Shown piece by piece: positions 23,403 through 30,951 of a DNA stretch of 64,000 bases. The notes under the pieces are model-generated. The model worked only from the letters and a program-made list of their open reading frames with translations. It had not been told where the DNA came from and ran no database searches. Positions within the stretch are counted from its first letter, which is position 1. The number at the start of each line of letters is the position of its first letter. Position numbers and translations under genes: made by a program. The stretch is from Acidobacteriota bacterium. GTDB lineage: Bacteria > Acidobacteriota > UBA6911 > RPQK01 > JAJDTT01. The stretch spans positions 2,319,443-2,383,442 of the forward strand of contig OZ246889.1 of NCBI GenBank assembly GCA_965231825.1. Direction: 5' to 3'.

Positions 23403-24509
23403 TCACTTCGACGCGAAGCGTGTGGCGACGTACTTCCCGGCATCGTTCTCGCTGAGCCGCACCGTGCCCGGGCCGCTCCGGACGTAGAGATCGCCCTTCC
23501 CGGCCTTCTCCAGGCTTTTCCATCGCAAGTAGACCGGCTCGGGACTTCGCTGGCAGCTCACCAGGCAAACGGTCTTGCCCTCCACAATCTGCATCCTGGG
23601 ATCGATGCAGGTGCCGGCCCGGTCGCCGAGTCCGTTGCGCACCACCTGGGCCAGGTGCAGCATGAACTTGTCGTCGGTCTCCAGGCGGTCATGCGCGATG
23701 CCCAGCACCTTGCGGTCGTCGTCCACGCCGATCAGGAGGTCCCCCCCTTCGGTGTTGAGGAATGCGGCAACGGTCTTGAGCGCCGCATGGGTCACGTGCT
23801 TGGGGTCCTTTCGATCCTCCTTCAGGTTCCAGCGGAGGCTCGACTTGAACTCCAGTGTCTTCGACTCCTGGTGCTTTAGCAATTCCTCCGCTCGCCGGTG
23901 CCGCCTGATGTAGTCGTCGAAGAGGAAGTTCTTGAGCGCCTGGCCGAAGTCGGGGTCGTCGGTGATCCGCTTGTAGAGGTCGAAGTTGGTCTCGACGATC
24001 TCCTGGATCTTGTCTTCCACCTTGGGGTCGAACGTCAGCCGCACGTTCTCGCGGGTGTTCACCCGGGCGCTGGCATCGAGGCCCGTGTCCCGGTCCAGGG
24101 CGGACCGGATCTGTTCCAGCGTCACGCGGTGTTCGCTGCCCAGGTTCAGACCGAAGAGCTCCAGGGGCTTGGGCTTCGGAGTGGCCGTGAAGGCGAACGT
24201 CGAGAGGTTGGGGAGCCGGCCGAGAAAACGCGGTTTCACATCGGTCCCATGGTGCTGCTTGAGCTTCTCCCACTTCTTCGGCTGGGTGGCTAGGAGGAAG
24301 TCGAGGACGTCGGCCGGGATCATGCAGAGCCTGCGGTCGTAGGCTTCGGGACGCCGCTTGTGGTAGCCGCCCGGCAAGGGATCATTGCCATATGCCTGCT
24401 GCGATTCCCTCACTGTCGTCGCGTCGCCCGGGCACGCGTCGGGCCCGTAACGCAGCAGCGCGCACTCTATCGCTTCCTCGAAGGCCCGCTCGGATACCTC
24501 CGAGCTCAC
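23403..24509 (-). CDS. Collapsed HsdR-like protein: HsdR N-terminal segment + relic TATP motif + C-terminal AlbA_2/Schlafen-like putative DNA-binding domain
   Basis: The N-terminus SERAFEEAIECALLRYGP...YDRRLCMIPADVLDFLLATQPKKWEKL resembles type I R-subunit N-termini. No PD-(D/E)xK nuclease core and no DEAD/helicase motifs I-II; only FAFTATP remains. The C-terminus ESKTLEFKSSL...TVAAFLNTEGGDLLIGVDDDRKVLGI matches the AlbA_2 domain. The ATG overlaps the hsdS stop (ATGA at 24506-24509). Confidence 0.6.
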   Translation of the reverse strand: MSSEVSERAFEEAIECALLRYGPDACPGDATTVRESQQAYGNDPLPGGYHKRRPEAYDRRLCMIPADVLDFLLATQPKKWEKLKQHHGTDVKPRFLGRLPNLSTFAFTATPKPKPLELFGLNLGSEHRVTLEQIRSALDRDTGLDASARVNTRENVRLTFDPKVEDKIQEIVETNFDLYKRITDDPDFGQALKNFLFDDYIRRHRRAEELLKHQESKTLEFKSSLRWNLKEDRKDPKHVTHAALKTVAAFLNTEGGDLLIGVDDDRKVLGIAHDRLETDDKFMLHLAQVVRNGLGDRAGTCIDPRMQIVEGKTVCLVSCQRSPEPVYLRWKSLEKAGKGDLYVRSGPGTVRLSENDAGKYVATRFASK

Positions 24510-25933
24510 GCGGTCTCCTTCCGGATGTCGATCTTGCCCGTGACAGCCGCAGAGATCAGGGCGGTGCGGAATTCTTTGAGGTGGACGATGGCTTGGCGTA
24601 CCTTCGCGATAAGAGTGTCGACTCTTGCCTTCTCATGAGCCAAGAAAGTTATGGTCGATGTTTGCTCTTTTACCGGCGGAATATTCAGCCAGACTTCTCG
24701 TAGCGAGTCCGAGTAGATGACGTCAATAGTGGTTGCATTGCTCATGAATCGTAGTTGATCGAGCACGATAGAGCATTCCTCGATCTGAATTTCGAGGAAG
24801 CGAGTTAAGATCCGGCGCCGGTCTGGTCGGACCCTCATCAAGCAAGGATGCAGAACGCCCCGCTCGGCCCCATCCGGCAGGATTGCACATCGCCCGATCG
24901 AGCCTTGCGTGGTGATCAATAAGTCACCAGGGAGGACCACAAATGCTCTGAGTTCTGCGAACTTCTCAAGCGAGACGTAGTTTTCACCACTCGAAAAGTC
25001 TCGATCAATCACGCTTCTTTGGTTGTATACCTTAATTTCGCCGGCCTGCATTTCAGAACTCTTGAGCTGACTTCCAAACGGCCCTGTCTTGATAGAGTCC
25101 TTGCTTGCTCTGAGGACGTGTTTCAGTTGCTTCACGTCCCAATGGGCCGGGGTCTGTCCCAACCACTCGATGCCGGAGTCCTTCATGGGGACGTTCGGGT
25201 CGAGGCCCCGGGTGATGGCCCGGGTGATGAGGGCGCTGCGTTTCTCCTGAAGCAACTCGATCAGCCGCTCCTTCCTCGCCACCAGCGCATCGATCCTTTC
25301 CGTTTCGCGGTCGAGGAATTTGACAATGGCGCGTTGTTCGTCTGACGGCGCCATCGGTAAGAGAATGGCTCCAAGAATAGAACCATTCAGATTCCCGAGC
25401 CCAGTTGTGGTTGACGAGAGGAAAATAAGCTGCTCGCGCGCAACCGGGCAGTTCATCAAATACCAGAAGAACCGGGGTAGGTGTTCGGCCGAGACCCTCA
25501 GGCGCTGCATGAAATTGGAGTAGCAGCAGTTCAGGGCTGCAATTGCTTCATCGACAACGGAGGTCTTCCCGATATGGTGTGTGCTTCCACTCGACTTCGC
25601 CACGAGCAGATCTCCCAATAACAGCTTGGCATAGGTCGCTTCGCGAGCGCTGAGTCGCCTTTGAGCTGGTTCTGTAATCCTCCACGCGCCACGCTTGGTT
25701 TGGTCGGTAGACCGCAGGACGATGGTTCCGTCGGCATCGAAGTCTTCACCCCAAACACCGCTGTCATTGCGAACCAGTGACGCCTTAAATGGCTTTGGGT
25801 TCCAATGTGCCGGAATCTTGCCTAGCCACTCGACGCCGGAGTCCCTGTACTTCGAGTAGGAAGGAAAGGGCCGTCGTTGAAGTTCGTCGATCCGATCATT
25901 TCCTTCGGTCACGCGGTCGGTCGCCTCAGTCAC
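24506..25933 (-). CDS. hsdS: Type I restriction-modification specificity subunit HsdS
   Basis: Two target-recognition domains, each preceded by the repeat DSGVEWLG.IPAHW (aa ~45 and ~265). Conserved central and C-terminal coiled regions. TRD DNA is visibly lower in GC. Likely GTG start at 25933 with a GGGAGG RBS; the ATG at 25981 is also possible. Confidence 0.9.
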   Translation of the reverse strand: MTEATDRVTEGNDRIDELQRRPFPSYSKYRDSGVEWLGKIPAHWNPKPFKASLVRNDSGVWGEDFDADGTIVLRSTDQTKRGAWRITEPAQRRLSAREATYAKLLLGDLLVAKSSGSTHHIGKTSVVDEAIAALNCCYSNFMQRLRVSAEHLPRFFWYLMNCPVAREQLIFLSSTTTGLGNLNGSILGAILLPMAPSDEQRAIVKFLDRETERIDALVARKERLIELLQEKRSALITRAITRGLDPNVPMKDSGIEWLGQTPAHWDVKQLKHVLRASKDSIKTGPFGSQLKSSEMQAGEIKVYNQRSVIDRDFSSGENYVSLEKFAELRAFVVLPGDLLITTQGSIGRCAILPDGAERGVLHPCLMRVRPDRRRILTRFLEIQIEECSIVLDQLRFMSNATTIDVIYSDSLREVWLNIPPVKEQTSTITFLAHEKARVDTLIAKVRQAIVHLKEFRTALISAAVTGKIDIRKETA

Positions 25934-26144
25934 CGCTCCCGCCTCCCGTCCGTGCCCGAATCCCAGGCCGCCACGGTCCACCCGCGGGCCAGACCTGGAT
26001 GAACGGGCTCTCCGCGATCAGGCTGTCGCAGACCGGTCCCAGGAAACGGCGCAGCTCCTCACCGACGTCCACGAGGCGATCCGGCCCATCGATGTCGGTC
26101 CCGATCTGCCGCCGCATCTCGCGGATCGCCTTTCGAGGAGTCAT
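25926..26144 (-). CDS. Small hypothetical ORF (72 aa) translationally coupled between abiEi-A and hsdS
   Basis: Its ATG overlaps the abiEi-A stop (ATGA at 26141-26144). Its stop overlaps the proposed hsdS GTG start (GTGACTGA). High-GC, Arg/Gly-rich, no recognisable domain. May be a non-functional relic (for example the stub of a deleted abiEii). Confidence 0.3.
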   Translation of the reverse strand: MTPRKAIREMRRQIGTDIDGPDRLVDVGEELRRFLGPVCDSLIAESPFIQVWPAGGPWRPGIRARTGGGSGD

Positions 26145-26797
26145 GCTGTCAGCACATCGAGTACCGGACCGACGAGCGACTTTGCTCGGCACACGTCGGC
26201 GGCCCGCCAGATCTGGTCGACGCTCGCCTTGCGGTCGCGCAGGGCGTCGCTTAGCGCCTCGATCGCGATGTCCTTGCCGACCAGCCGCCGGAAGCGGAAG
26301 CAGTCCACCACGGTGCGGGCCGGGCTCGTGATACGGACGGGGACCCCCTCGAAGGTCGCGTTCACGACGCCGTAGCGCAGCCTGACCCCGGAGAATCGCA
26401 CCACTCGGATCGGCAGCCCGGGCAGGCGGGGCGTGCGGGCCTTGTGCGGAATGGCGATCCAGACCTCGTGTGGGAGCTGCGTGCCGATCCCGTAGACGCT
26501 CAGGGCCGTCAGCAGGCAGACTACGGCGCTCGGGACCCGGGCGCACACGGCGGCCCGGGTGTAGTGCTCTGTCGGTTCCACGTGGGCGAGGCGGTAGAGC
26601 CCGCGCGCCACTCGCTCGACCGAACCGTCATCCACCAGGCGCCGGAGCGCACGTGAGTGGACGCCCAGAGCGGCCGCGTCGCGCGAACGGAAGAAGGTCT
26701 TGGAGCCGAGCCGCTGCAGGCTAGAGTCACCTGTCGGGGAATATCGCACTGAAATGTCGCCAGATGAATTCAGTTGTTTACCTTTCGATTCATGCAT
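26141..26797 (-). CDS. AbiEi-family (COG5340) antitoxin-like transcriptional regulator, copy A
   Basis: wHTH ..VARGLYRL.., then VVCLLTALSVYGIGTQLPHEVWIAIPHKAR...IRVVRFSG...GVPVRITSPARTVVDCFRFRR.VGKDIAIEAL. Same architecture as AbiEi. Confidence 0.7.
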   Translation of the reverse strand: MHESKGKQLNSSGDISVRYSPTGDSSLQRLGSKTFFRSRDAAALGVHSRALRRLVDDGSVERVARGLYRLAHVEPTEHYTRAAVCARVPSAVVCLLTALSVYGIGTQLPHEVWIAIPHKARTPRLPGLPIRVVRFSGVRLRYGVVNATFEGVPVRITSPARTVVDCFRFRRLVGKDIAIEALSDALRDRKASVDQIWRAADVCRAKSLVGPVLDVLTA

Positions 26798-27010
26798 GCC
26801 ATGAATATAACCGGTGTGAGCTGTCTAGATCAAAATGTCGATAACCATTAATATTTGCCGTCATTATCAGTCATTGGCCGGTTGTCTCGGAAAACAGGGC
26901 CACAATTTCCGTCTCCAGGATGTTCGCCTCGGTCTCCTCACCGGTCTCGCGACTGCGGGCGAGCAGCCGGTCGCGGACGGACGCCGAGATGTTCTTGAGC
27001 GGACGTGTCC

Positions 27011-27612
27011 TCACGACAGAACCGCTTCCATGTACGGCTGCAGGACCGTGCGCGCCCGGCAGACGCTGGCTGCGCGCATGATCTCATCCGGGGTGGCGAG
27101 CCGTTGGCGCAGCACGTCCCGGAGGGCCTCCAGGGCGGTGTCGAGGCCTAACTTGTTGCGGTACCGGAAGCAGTCGACGACCGTCCGGGCCGGCGATGTG
27201 ATGGCAACCGGCACGCCGAGCATTGGGCGGCGGCCGATCCCGTATGTGAGCATCGCCTTCGAGAACCAGACGACCCGAACCTGCGCCGGCACTCGGGCGG
27301 GGCGGCGCGCCTTGCGGTTGATGGCGATCCAGACCTCGTGAGGGGATTCAGTACCGATCTCGTAAACGCGGAGCGCGGTCATCAGGCAGACGATGGCGTG
27401 CGGCACGGCAGCAGCTACCATGGCGACCGTCTCCAGTTCCGTCGGCTCGACCTCGGCCAGCCGGTAAGGGCCGCCGCCGAGGTTCTCAACGGCTCCGGTC
27501 GCAACGAGTCCGCGGAGGCGACGGTAAGGGACACCGAACGGCTCGATGTCTCGCGGCCGGAAAAAGGCACCAATGCCGGCTGCTTCGAGCGCGGCCGCAG
27601 TGAGTTCAGCCA
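27011..27612 (-). CDS. AbiEi-family (COG5340) antitoxin-like transcriptional regulator, copy B
   Basis: About 55% identical to copy A (..GGGPYRLAEVEPTE..IVCLMTALRVYEIGTESPHEVWIAINRKAR..VRVVWFSK..VAITSPARTVVDCFRYRNKLGLDTALEAL..PYMEAVLS). Start taken at ATG 27612 (MAELTAAAL). The track start at 27733 would run through the upstream operator. Confidence 0.7.
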
Positions 27613-27628
27613 TGGATGTATAGTAATT

Positions 27629-27658
27629 TATGTCGGCATATAGGTAATAGTGCCGACA
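27629..27658 (-). promoter_or_regulatory. Perfect inverted repeat ATGTCGGCA-N12-TGCCGACAT just upstream of abiEi-B (candidate autoregulatory operator)
   Basis: Read directly: atgtcggcatataggtaatagtgccgacat, 9-bp arms, AT-rich spacer, within 20 nt of the ATG. Confidence 0.5.
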
Positions 27659-27729
27659 TTTTGTTCTTGCTTTGCTCAGGCCGCCATAGCCGTCGCTTCG
27701 CCTGTTTGCCGTCCAGGGCAGGCGGAGGT

Positions 27730-28461: not shown

Positions 28462-28545
28462 GCCCGTGATCGTACAGACACATATGATTTGTGTCAACCA
28501 ATGTGACTCGATAAATTTGTGGTGTCAGATATGTGTCAACTCCTG
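28462..28545 (-). promoter_or_regulatory. Near-consensus sigma70 promoter plus direct-repeat operator for vapBC
   Basis: On the coding strand: GTTGACACA...GTTGACACAaatcatatgtgtctgTACGATcacgggccATG. The -35 TTGACA (28492-28497), a 17-nt spacer and the -10 TACGAT (28469-28474) imply a leaderless or very short-leader transcript. GTTGACACA occurs twice (28492-28500 and 28534-28542). Confidence 0.45.
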
Positions 28546-28627
28546 TGAATCACACGAAGGCTGATGGGGAGCGGCGACAGTCTCCGCTCGGTCTGCGTGG
28601 CCCGCAGCCGCCGCAGAAGGGCCGGCG

Positions 28628-30742
28628 TCAAACGCGCATCTCTTCCAGCATCGCCGCGATCTCCTTCTCCACCTGCCGGATGTCGGCCTTGATCTCTTCC
28701 AAGGGACGGGGCGGCCGGTATTCGTAGAAGTAGCGATTGAAGTTGATCTCGTAGCCCACGAGCCCGACCTTTCCGTCCTGGGGGTCCCGGCGCTTCGAAT
28801 CGATCCAGGCGTCGGGAATGTGGGGCCTCACCTCGCGCTCGAAGAACGACTCGACAGCTTCGCTGAGGGGCACGTTCTCCGTGTCGCGGAGCTGCGGATC
28901 GGGCTCGGGCCGGCCCTTCCGGTCCCGGCAGACCGCGGCTTCGGTGTTGCGCTCGGACAGGGCGGAGAGCACAGCCTTCTTGATCGGCGCGGTGAGTTTC
29001 GGCCCGGCAGTTTGCGCTGCCCGGGAGAGCTCGGATTCGAAGTCAGCCCGATCCAGGAAGAGCCGGTCGGGCAGACTCCGGAGGAGGTCGCGGATCGTGG
29101 CCTGCTTCTCACGGCCCGCCCCTTCGTCCTTGGCCTTGGCCGCGCCCCTCTTTCGCGACCGCGCCAGGTTGATGAAGGCGCGCTGGTCGTCGAGCCGCGC
29201 GATCCGCTCGGGGCTGGCCTGGAAATCGAGCCGGAGCGGCCGTTCGACCGTGATCTTGCGGAAACGGAAATGCGTGGCCGGGTAGATGCGGCTGACGACC
29301 ACCTCCCGCTCCTCGCCGTTATCGTCCACGTTGCGGGTCGCGCCGTCCTCGAATTCCGCCAGCAGCCGCAGGATGTCCTCCTTGCGGTCGAACGGGATCT
29401 CCCGGCGCTTGGCTCCCAGGCTCTTTCGCAGCAGGACCCAGAACGACGTGGCGTTGATGAGCTGGACCTTGCCCCGCCGCTCGGGCCGTTTCCGGTTGGT
29501 AAGCACCCAGACGTAAGTGGCGATCCCGGTGTTGTAGAAGAGTTGTTCGGGCAGCGCGATGAGCGCCTCCAGCAGGTCGTTCTCCAGAATCCAGCGCCGG
29601 ATCTCACGCTCGTCGCTGCCGGCATAGCCCGTGAAGAGGGGCGATCCGTTCATGATGATGGCGATTCGGGAGCCGCCCTGTGAGGGTTCCTTGGAGTGCC
29701 CAAGCATGTGGAGGAGGAACAGGAGCTGGCCGTCGCTGATCCGCGGCAGACCCGGTGCGAAACGGCCGGCGGCGCCCCGGTCGTGCTCGGCCCGCACCGC
29801 GTCCTGGTCGCGTTTCCAGTCCTTGCCGTAGGGCGGATTGGCGATCATGTAGTCGAAGCCGGTTCCGGCGTGCCGGTCGTTCGAGAGCGTGCTCCCAAAG
29901 AGTACTCTCTTCGCGTCGCGGCCTTTTTTCGACTTTATGAAGAGGTCCGACTTGCAGATGGCATAGGTCTCCGGGTTCACCTCCTGGCCGAACAGGTGGA
30001 TGTGAGCGCCTGGGTTCACGGGGTTGGCCAGACGCGTGCCCTCTCGTATCTCGCCGAGGGTTGTGTGCTCCTTGGCGATGGTGAGCATGCCGCCTGAGCC
30101 GCAGCAAGGGTCGTAGACGCTTCGCGCAACGCCCTTCTTGCGCAGTTCTTCCTCGTCGCCGGCCAGCATCAGGTCCACCATGAGATGGACCACGTCGCGG
30201 GGCGTGAAGTGCTCGCCGGGATTTTCGTTGAGTGCCTCGTTGAATTTCCGGATGAGCTCCTCGAAGATCGTGCCCATCGTGAAGTTGTCGATGGCATTCG
30301 GATGGAGATTCACCTTCTTGGGGTCGCCGAAGCGCTGCATGACCAGAAAGAGGAGGCCCGCCTCGTCCAGCTTGGAGATGGTGTTGTCGAAGTCGAACTT
30401 CTCCAGCACCTCGCGCATGTTGGGACTGAACCCGGCGATGTAGTTGCGCAGGTTCTGCGCGATGTGTGGCGCGTCGGCGAGCAGCTTCGCGAAGTCGTAA
30501 CGCGAGGTGTTGTAGAAGGCGAATCCGGAGGCGCCTTGAAGCAGTCGGTCGGGGTTTTCGATCCTGCCCGTGTATTTGGCTTGAACCTCCAGCACTTTCG
30601 ACTTGGTGGGGGCCAGTACGCAGTCGAGCCGGCGAAGCACGGTGAGCGGGAGGATCACGTCCTGGTACTTTCCGCGCTTGAAGGTGTCGCGGATCAGGTC
30701 CGCCACCCCCCAGATGAAGCTGGTGATCTCGCTGTGGTTCAT
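28628..30742 (-). CDS. hsdM: Type I restriction-modification N6-adenine DNA methyltransferase HsdM
   Basis: HsdM N-terminal domain (SFIWGVADLIRD), AdoMet motif I (DPCCGSGGML) and motif IV (NPPYG). Start at ATG 30742 (MNHSEITSF). Confidence 0.95.
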   Translation of the reverse strand: MNHSEITSFIWGVADLIRDTFKRGKYQDVILPLTVLRRLDCVLAPTKSKVLEVQAKYTGRIENPDRLLQGASGFAFYNTSRYDFAKLLADAPHIAQNLRNYIAGFSPNMREVLEKFDFDNTISKLDEAGLLFLVMQRFGDPKKVNLHPNAIDNFTMGTIFEELIRKFNEALNENPGEHFTPRDVVHLMVDLMLAGDEEELRKKGVARSVYDPCCGSGGMLTIAKEHTTLGEIREGTRLANPVNPGAHIHLFGQEVNPETYAICKSDLFIKSKKGRDAKRVLFGSTLSNDRHAGTGFDYMIANPPYGKDWKRDQDAVRAEHDRGAAGRFAPGLPRISDGQLLFLLHMLGHSKEPSQGGSRIAIIMNGSPLFTGYAGSDEREIRRWILENDLLEALIALPEQLFYNTGIATYVWVLTNRKRPERRGKVQLINATSFWVLLRKSLGAKRREIPFDRKEDILRLLAEFEDGATRNVDDNGEEREVVVSRIYPATHFRFRKITVERPLRLDFQASPERIARLDDQRAFINLARSRKRGAAKAKDEGAGREKQATIRDLLRSLPDRLFLDRADFESELSRAAQTAGPKLTAPIKKAVLSALSERNTEAAVCRDRKGRPEPDPQLRDTENVPLSEAVESFFEREVRPHIPDAWIDSKRRDPQDGKVGLVGYEINFNRYFYEYRPPRPLEEIKADIRQVEKEIAAMLEEMRV

Positions 30743-30951
30743 GCCGGGTCCGTTGAATTTAACAGATTGCCGGACTTGGATACGGAACAATGAACAGGCA
30801 CTCTGCTCGACCCCGATCCTGACCCTCCGAGGCCAACTCCAAAGACCGGGACGTGTTACCTCTTGTCAACACTGACCGGGCTCCGTCTGTTCGGCGGCGG
30901 GTATTCTGGTGTAGCCTTCGGGAGAATTCTGAAAAAGAGATGGAGGATCTC

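Follow-up and report, generated by a model that had tools for sequence, protein, structure and literature searches.

Two abiEi genes lie in tandem in a 64-kb stretch of Acidobacteriota DNA (64,000 nucleotides, hereafter the window), and each is preceded by an inverted repeat. Are these repeats operators for the proteins encoded behind them, and do both of them still work? A sequence-only reading had proposed that they are operators, on the premise that AbiEi proteins autorepress through inverted repeats in their own promoters. This premise is published, as AbiEi and Rv2827c bind inverted repeats overlapping their own promoters and repress them (PMC3985639, PMC7319586). From the comparisons described below, we consider it very probable that the repeats are operators through which the AbiEi proteins encoded just downstream repress their own promoters. 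The genes of the locus are all on the minus strand, and the features that we discuss are collected in Table 1.

Table 1. Genes, predicted operators and promoter elements of the locus (positions in the window; upstream and downstream distances refer to the start codon of the gene concerned).
Feature	Position	Strand	Remarks
hsdM	28628..30790	-	Pfam N6_Mtase, HsdM_N; first gene of the operon hosting the abiE cassettes
Operator B (site B)	27630..27659		predicted; ATGTCGGCA-N12-TGCCGACAT; -46 to -17 relative to the abiEi-B ATG
-35 position in the operator B spacer	27644..27649	-	TATTAC in the window; TTGnnn in 55 of 60 homologues
-10 hexamer TACTAT, abiEi-B promoter	27620..27625	-	6 nt from the ATG at 27613
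abiEi-B	27011..27613	-	200 aa; predicted wHTH antitoxin/repressor; ATG at 27613
abiEii-B remnant ORF	26871..27014	-	~29 initial abiEii-B codons, joined to what looks like ~20 terminal codons of a second hsdM
Operator A-O1 (site A)	26835..26864		predicted; coding strand ATGACGGCA-N12-TATCGACAT; -67 to -38
-35 TTGATC, abiEi-A promoter	26828..26833	-	conserved as TTGAyn in the A-type alignment
-10 TATATT, abiEi-A promoter	26804..26809	-	6 nt from the ATG at 26797; A-type alignment has a conserved TATgcT/TATATT, 6-7 nt from the ATG or GTG
Operator A-O2	26754..26783		predicted; inside the abiEi-A coding region, +15 to +44; AGGTAAACA-N12-TGGCGACAT
abiEi-A	26141..26797	-	218 aa; ~20-aa N-terminal extension carrying O2
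abiEii-A remnant	25926..26144	-	in-frame 753-bp internal deletion; nucleotidyltransferase core gone
hsdS	24506..25981	-	Pfam Methylase_S; next gene after the abiEii-A remnant

The identification of both genes as abiEi held. abiEi-A matched Pfam AbiEi_4 (PF13338) at 8.2e-13 and AbiEi_1 (PF09407) at 1.3e-4, the latter with 22.7 bits against a cutoff of 22.2, and the proteins of abiEi-B and abiEi-A are 57% identical. When abiEi-B was searched directly against Pfam, no threshold-level match was obtained (PF09407 at 0.0088, below the cutoff); most of its close homologues (82-85% identical) carry a precomputed PF13338. The abiEi-B family comprises 3155 database proteins at E<=1e-10, with about 70% identity between phyla, and many of its members are listed with PF13338 and with source names such as 'AbiEi family antitoxin'. 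An AlphaFold model of AbiEi-B, built from a 12-sequence alignment, reached a pLDDT of only 49 and was too poor for a fold search, so a sequence profile was used instead; the B-family profile matched 6Y8Q, which is AbiEi of S. agalactiae, and 9HLO at E=1.1e-4 over residues 20-166, spanning both domains. NCBIfam returned nothing above threshold for abiEi-A, abiEi-B or the AbiEii relatives. In related loci, a full-length AbiEii gene (PF08843, 1e-40 to 1e-45) follows the B-type and the A-type genes.

We then compared the two repeats with each other and with the rest of the window. On the plus strand, site B reads ATGTCGGCA (27630-27638), spacer tataggtaatag and TGCCGACAT (27651-27659). The 9-bp inverted repeat is perfect, as had been claimed, its spacer is 12 nt long, and the site lies one nucleotide away from the interval 27629-27658 first assigned to it. 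Site A, on the same strand, reads ATGTCGATA, spacer accattaatatt and TGCCGTCAT, with the spacing of site B and three mismatches to it; the 8-mers originally quoted at 26836-26863 are exact, and the full site extends over 26835-26864. The half-site TGWCGGCA had been pointed out as common to both, and both sites fit a single paired pattern with a 12-nt gap. A motif search for this half-site, suggested earlier as a check, was unremarkable within the window (9 matches vs 4.7 expected; 4 of 100 shuffles reached 9), and the half-site by itself was dropped as evidence. The paired site ATGTCGGCA-N12-TGCCGACAT, in contrast, occurred with at most three mismatches only at A and B in the whole 64 kb, where 0 sites were expected, and 100 dinucleotide-preserving shuffles of the window yielded no match to the paired pattern at this threshold. 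Since the single half-site is unremarkable, it is the pairing that carries the signal. Homologous loci supplied a position-weight matrix, and a scan with it gave 35.7 bits for site B, 18.6 for site A and 13.0 for a further site at 26754-26783 (O2), while the best background site in the 64 kb scored 7.2 bits. These top three scores all fall at the 5' ends of the two abiEi genes.

For comparison, 80 genome loci encoding abiEi-B relatives (483 kb) were examined, and the same inverted repeat was found upstream of almost all of these relatives. With at most three mismatches there were 99 sites in the 483 kb, where by our own arithmetic about one would be expected by chance. Most of them are found no more than about 130 nt in front of an abiEi start. 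Some ten are elsewhere, and several of these precede a second, downstream abiEi copy. Seventy B-type loci, including Acidobacteriota, Latescibacterota, Spirochaetia, Gemmatimonadota, Planctomycetota and Proteobacteria, gave the consensus AA-ATGTCGGCA-cTTGc...TA.g-TGCCGACAT-tta.TAccaT-N6-ATG, in which the half-sites are nearly invariant and the spacer and flanks variable, and which the half-sites of site B match fully. The distance from the end of the repeat to the start codon is 15-19 nt in 62 of 71 loci and exactly 16 nt in 35. Among 60 B-type loci, TTG occupies spacer positions 2-4 in 55, and TAnnnT follows the repeat in 57, at the same offset as in the window in 46 and 6-7 nt before the start in 45; a Shine-Dalgarno-like 4-mer before the start was seen in none of the 60. 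Both abiEi promoters of the window look leaderless. Many loci carry a second copy of the repeat 44-67 bp upstream of the first, and, measured from a conserved FFR codon, the repeat positions cluster around two values, -100 and -160.

The repeat is also present in loci without hsdM within 3 kb. A Methylomagnum plasmid, for example, carries a stand-alone, PGAP-annotated abiEi/abiEii pair (46% protein identity) with the repeat TTGTCGGCG-N12-TACCGACGT upstream, TTGACA inside the spacer and 19 nt between the repeat and the ATG. Across these loci the repeat is seen to travel with abiEi, independently of hsdM. Taken together, this phylogenetic footprinting strongly backs the operator reading, which the recurrence of half-sites, spacing and start-codon distance across many phyla bears out.

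At abiEi-B, the repeat and its surroundings make it very likely that AbiEi has an operator at site B and that this operator overlaps a leaderless promoter. The window is one of the five exceptions among the 60 B-type loci in which the TTG of the spacer is missing. The spacer region reads ctattacctata in the window and cttggttttata in L006, the closest relative, which keeps cTTGgttttata at the -35 position. Because this conserved -35 TTG has been lost, the abiEi-B promoter in the window may be weak or dead. The half-sites of operator B are identical in the window, L001 and L006, and the spacer between them differs at up to 6 of 12 positions. The dN/dS of abiEi-B is 0.10-0.23 against its relatives, irrespective of whether the toxin gene is kept. 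Given a dN/dS of 0.1-0.2 and half-sites that are invariant despite toxin loss, abiEi-B and operator B appear to be still under selection as a regulator-operator pair after the loss of the cognate toxin.

The arrangement at abiEi-A is different and was studied in a further 80 metagenome loci, retrieved with an A-type alignment; the tandem B-A order itself is common to nine related loci from Acidobacteriota and Vicinamibacterales genomes. In the A-type layout, O1 is followed by a -35 of the form TTGAyn, a 17-18-nt spacer, the -10, 6-7 nt, the ATG or GTG, and then O2 at +15 to +44. The hexamers proposed earlier for the window (TTGATC and TATATT) are correct in sequence, in the position of the -10 and in the 18-nt spacer between them, while the -35 lies at 26828-26833 and not at 26829-26834. 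This pair is one of only two sigma-70-like matches in 2.9 kb, where 0.3 would be expected. O2 lies within the N-terminal extension of about 20 codons that sets the A-type proteins apart, and well-formed O2 sites occupy the corresponding position in L082, L084-L086, L088, L096, L015 and L021. In the window its right half, TGGCGACAT, is near consensus and its left half is degenerate; the start-to-start distance between O1 and O2 is 81 bp, the same as in L082. Counted from the FFR codon, O1 and O2 stand at -169 and -88 in the window and in L001, L006, L075, L082, L084-L088 and L095. By these FFR-codon offsets, the position of O2 therefore corresponds approximately to that of the proximal operator of B-type genes. 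The extension evolves fast as a protein (dN 0.13 vs 0.02 for the remainder of abiEi-A), and a constraint on the K-x-R-Q...A-D peptide, instead of selection on the DNA, could be partly responsible for the conservation of O2. The proposal that site A is an operator is supported by the comparative data, with the amendments that O1 deviates at three highly conserved positions and that the partner site O2 in the coding region had been overlooked.

Both abiEi genes have lost their toxin partners. Related loci usually show the order hsdM-abiEi-abiEii-hsdS, with abiEii overlapping the abiEi stop, and hsdM is upstream of abiEi in most of them. In the window, a vapBC-like RHH/PIN pair lies between hsdM and abiEi-B. 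Behind abiEi-B, tblastn recovered AbiEii residues 1-29 only; the tail of the remnant ORF resembles the hsdM ends that precede A-type cassettes, the A cassette follows, and collinearity with L004 ends at 26935. The abiEii-A remnant begins with an ATGA overlap with the abiEi-A stop, and its retained 3' end overlaps the hsdS start. Its deletion was defined relative to L006 (93% identical over 4.4 kb), where the full-length abiEii-A matches PF08843 at 2.4e-40; the junction is at 26116-26123, with 8 bp of microhomology. No hsdR was recognised in the window: in the ORF behind hsdS (23403-24509) an AlbA_2 domain is all that was identified, and the flanking genes are unrelated. That this ORF holds an hsdR remnant was considered and rejected, its N-terminal 214 aa being without a Pfam match. 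As read from its sequence, the locus is what remains of a chimeric type I restriction-modification operon that has degenerated and lost both of its AbiEii toxin genes by deletion. Because both abiEii genes are truncated, abiEi-A and abiEi-B would be orphan antitoxins of AbiE descent, with no toxin left to regulate. Transcripts of hsdS probably arise at the abiEi-A promoter, by read-through, or in both ways.

The mechanism that we propose starts from AbiEi as a winged-helix antitoxin that would also repress its own promoter. Each operator would consist of two 9-bp half-sites of the consensus A-T/C-GTCGGCA with centres 21 bp apart and, since 21 bp amounts to two helical turns, a pair of AbiEi molecules would be placed on one side of the double helix. 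In analogy to the S. agalactiae protein, we assumed that each half-site takes one monomer. AbiEi binding, repression, the transcription start sites and the stoichiometry at these sites are points that we infer. At abiEi-B, the promoter would be built into the operator, with the -35 in the 12-nt spacer and the proximal half-site between the -35 and the -10. The mRNA would have no leader, since the -10 is only 6 nt from the ATG, and bound AbiEi would exclude RNA polymerase, resulting in negative autoregulation. At abiEi-A, a second leaderless promoter would lie between the upstream O1 and the downstream O2, and occupation of both sites would leave this promoter clamped or looped. Since both A sites have been weakened by mutation, abiEi-A is probably either poorly repressed or ruled by whichever AbiEi is the more abundant.

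How much of this applies to site A is the main point on which the readings diverge. It may be that only site B works, and that O1 and O2 are decaying relics of a two-operator promoter with no useful AbiEi binding. This would fit the three mismatches of O1, which fall at positions conserved in 90-99% of 181 sites elsewhere, the different damage of O1 in the closest relatives (ATGCCGGCA/TATCGACAA in L006 and ATGTCGTCA/TGCCAACAT in L001), the absence of a recognisable O1 from L011 and L072 in the A-type alignment, the lost left half of O2 and the deletion of abiEii-A in the window. However, O1 still scores far above the best background site (18.6 vs 7.2 bits), its position and 12-nt spacing are exactly kept across A-type loci, and weak and strong repeats coexist by design in the M. 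tuberculosis Rv2827c promoter (PMC7319586). We regard decay to a relic as somewhat unlikely and lean slightly towards a site A that is still functional. The relic reading touches site A only and is compatible with operator function at site B. O1 might also be an activator site and not a repressor site: its centre is near -52, where class I/II activators typically bind, and it ends 1 nt before the -35 without overlapping the core promoter. The characterised AbiEi proteins, however, are all repressors (PMC3985639, PMC7319586), the same family and half-site take an occluding position at B-type promoters, and the paired O2 downstream of the start suggests repression by clamping or looping, all of which makes activation improbable.

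Two further explanations concern the repeats as a class. Folded as RNA, site B would give a stem of 9 bp (-14.4 kcal/mol, z = -5.2). The site is located a short way downstream from where the upstream genes converge, and in many loci the repeat comes directly after hsdM, as might be expected of an RNA or DNA hairpin, for instance a terminator or stabiliser of the upstream hsdM/vapBC transcript. But no U-tract follows the stem, a terminator scan of the region found no terminator-like sites, and site A does not fold (z = +1.4). The variation among the 181 distinct sites is mostly one-sided, breaking the pairing and yet remaining near the consensus; at position 2 of the half-site, one-sided changes number 57 and symmetric ones 16. 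Even so, symmetric changes were observed 46 times, twice the frequency in shuffles (mean 21.8, maximum 36). Moreover, the 'loop' holds a conserved TTG at a fixed distance from the -10 box, the distance to the start codon is fixed, and sites also occur without an upstream same-strand gene and inside a coding region. The one-sided variation and the failure of site A to fold thus argue for protein recognition over a hairpin, and we rejected the hairpin or terminator reading as barely credible. Binding by another factor, or a role of the repeat in recombination or as the boundary of a mobile abiE cassette inserting between hsdM and hsdS, we hold to be highly improbable. Such a cassette would account for abiE in the same place in type I restriction-modification operons of many phyla, for the repeat at its upstream edge and for a recombination junction just upstream of site A in the window. 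Against it, the downstream edge has no matching repeat, no recombinase is linked, the repeat is in fixed register with promoter hexamers and start codon, and it is also found at stand-alone abiE pairs outside restriction-modification operons. Further, hsdM is as conserved as abiEi across the loci, suggesting that the moving unit is the entire operon and not the cassette.

The preferred reading, AbiEi operators at both genes, resembles the two systems studied so far, with differences in geometry. In S. agalactiae, AbiEi binds two 23-bp repeats that lie 3 bp apart and have perfect 11-bp cores (N27) (Dy et al. 2014, PMC3985639); the repeats cover the -35, the -10 and +1, and repression occurs without the toxin (PMC3985639). 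The structure of this protein, 6Y8Q, was reported by Beck et al. 2020 (PMC7319586). As in the loci related to ours, the gene of a two-domain wHTH antitoxin lies upstream of a DUF1814/AbiEii toxin gene, and inverted repeats are located at its own promoter, P(abiE), with the -35 adjoining or overlapping the distal repeat. In contrast to the 23-bp repeats there, the sites here have 9-bp half-sites with a 12-nt gap, 21 bp from centre to centre, and a GTCGGCA core where S. agalactiae has TGTTGCTTTTA. A ribosome-binding site is present on the mRNA in S. agalactiae, while the promoters here look leaderless, and the similarity between the proteins is remote (E=1e-4). In M. tuberculosis, Rv2827c binds at its own promoter to 23-bp repeats that form two pairs, have gaps of 13 bp and are bound with graded affinity (Beck et al. 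2020, PMC7319586). This, too, is an AbiEi-family repressor with two repeat pairs of unequal quality over about 130 bp around the promoter, and the two-pair layout resembles the distal and proximal sites of many B-type loci as well as O1 and O2 of the A-type loci. The differences are the 23-bp repeats and 13-bp gaps and their location entirely upstream of the start codon, whereas in the A-type clade one operator is inside the coding region. A looser parallel is provided by the C proteins of type II restriction-modification systems, small HTH regulators with palindromic operators overlapping their own, often leaderless, promoter. Here, too, an HTH regulator with an operator at its own promoter would sit inside a restriction-modification operon; C proteins, however, are an unrelated family of Xre-type dimers, and the abiE cassette normally also encodes a toxin.

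Most likely, then, the sites represent a known kind of control, AbiEi autoregulation, in a form that is unusually well conserved across many phyla. In the literature library that we searched, nothing was found that describes this motif or an abiE cassette located between hsdM and hsdS, and a full-text search for the motif gave unrelated primer matches only. With only the S. agalactiae and M. tuberculosis operators studied so far, both of different geometry, the comparison provides a precise and testable operator consensus (A-T/C-GTCGGCA, inverted, with a 12-nt gap) and a promoter layout for a large environmental AbiEi clade. abiE cassettes routinely sit between the hsdM and hsdS of type I restriction-modification operons in many phyla, and this embedding leads to the testable idea that they gate the expression of the specificity subunit. 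A more far-reaching version, which we put forward tentatively and consider unlikely, is that AbiEi and its operator-embedded leaderless promoter control hsdS from within the operon in the manner of a C protein, along with any restriction genes that follow it, and were kept here for this role after the loss of both toxins. If this were true, the window would be a case of a role in hsdS control outliving the toxin-antitoxin function; abiEi-B and a perfect operator would have been kept though both toxins are deleted, and the in-frame deletion in abiEii-A would have left intact precisely the 3' stretch shared with the hsdS start. For annotation, the motif would show where the leaderless abiEi genes truly begin, and it flags operator remnants within coding sequence.

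A remaining question is whether the two proteins have separate specificities. The expectation that each copy may have its own operator holds for position and probably not for specificity, as A-type and B-type operators share the single consensus A-T/C-GTCGGCA. With this shared consensus, cross-recognition of the operators by AbiEi-A and AbiEi-B is more likely than private specificities. Separate specificities were set aside on this ground and because L007 and L070 have a changed O1 without a changed recognition helix. Elsewhere in the family, symmetric variant operators do occur: ACGTTGACA/TGTCAACGT in L077, where the recognition helix is TRGRLRRML, and ATCTCGGCA-N13-TGCCGGGAT in L110 and L113, where it is SYDELRRLV. 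The numbers are small, and this pairing of variant operators with altered recognition helices is no more than suggestive of recognition by the protein.

Many A-type homologues, the abiEi paralogues with an N-terminal extension of about 20 codons, carry a well-formed O2 site at the position equivalent to that in abiEi-A, which argues that the sequence encoding this extension also serves as a predicted operator. At operator B, upstream of abiEi-B, the half-sites and flanks do not differ between the window and its closest relative, L006, while the 12-nt spacer reads ctattacctata in the window versus cttggttttata in L006. These five clustered differences have removed the conserved -35 TTG from the window operator.

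Features at the abiE locus and its surroundings
Feature	Position	Description
ORF downstream of hsdS	23403-24509	368 aa; sole domain a C-terminal AlbA_2/Schlafen
abiEii-A remnant	25926-26144	deletion junction 26116-26123
O2	26754-26783	third AbiEi-type site; within first 45 nt of abiEi-A coding region
Fusion ORF	26871-27014	47 codons; first ~29 codons of abiEii-B plus tail resembling hsdM C-terminus
Operator B spacer	27639-27650	12 nt
Direct repeat, copy 1	28486-28509	24 nt
Direct repeat, copy 2	28528-28551	24 nt

Both partner toxin genes are present only as remnants. With L006 as the reference, abiEii-A lacks 753 bp internally and in frame, with an 8-bp microhomology at the junction; the nucleotidyltransferase core was lost, but the 3′ end, within which hsdS begins, was retained. 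The fusion ORF, which is common to the window, L006 and a further homologous locus, L001, resembles a scar left by a deletion joining two type I R-M/abiE operons. No recognisable hsdR was found within the locus, and the N-terminal 214 aa of the ORF downstream of hsdS had no match in Pfam; this ORF may represent a restriction subunit that was truncated or replaced.

Two adjoining elements closely precede the RHH/PIN (vapBC-like) pair: a direct repeat of 24 nt (GATnTGTGTCAAC..TGTGAnTC) and a strong sigma-70-like promoter on the minus strand (TTGACA-17-TACGAT; region 28469-28551). Given this position beside the promoter and directly before the pair, the repeat is probably the operator of the RHH antitoxin.

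In type I R-M operons of many phyla, abiEi-abiEii cassettes lie between hsdM and hsdS (L001-L160; for example L004, L017, L026 and L052), with hsdS beginning either within the 3′ end of abiEii or right next to it. A stand-alone annotated abiEi/abiEii pair (46% identity) on Methylomagnum ishizawai plasmid pRS11DPr2 shares the 9-12-9 operator (L161:2395-2424), whose spacer there contains TTGACA; this pair is a candidate system in a cultured organism that is open to experiment.
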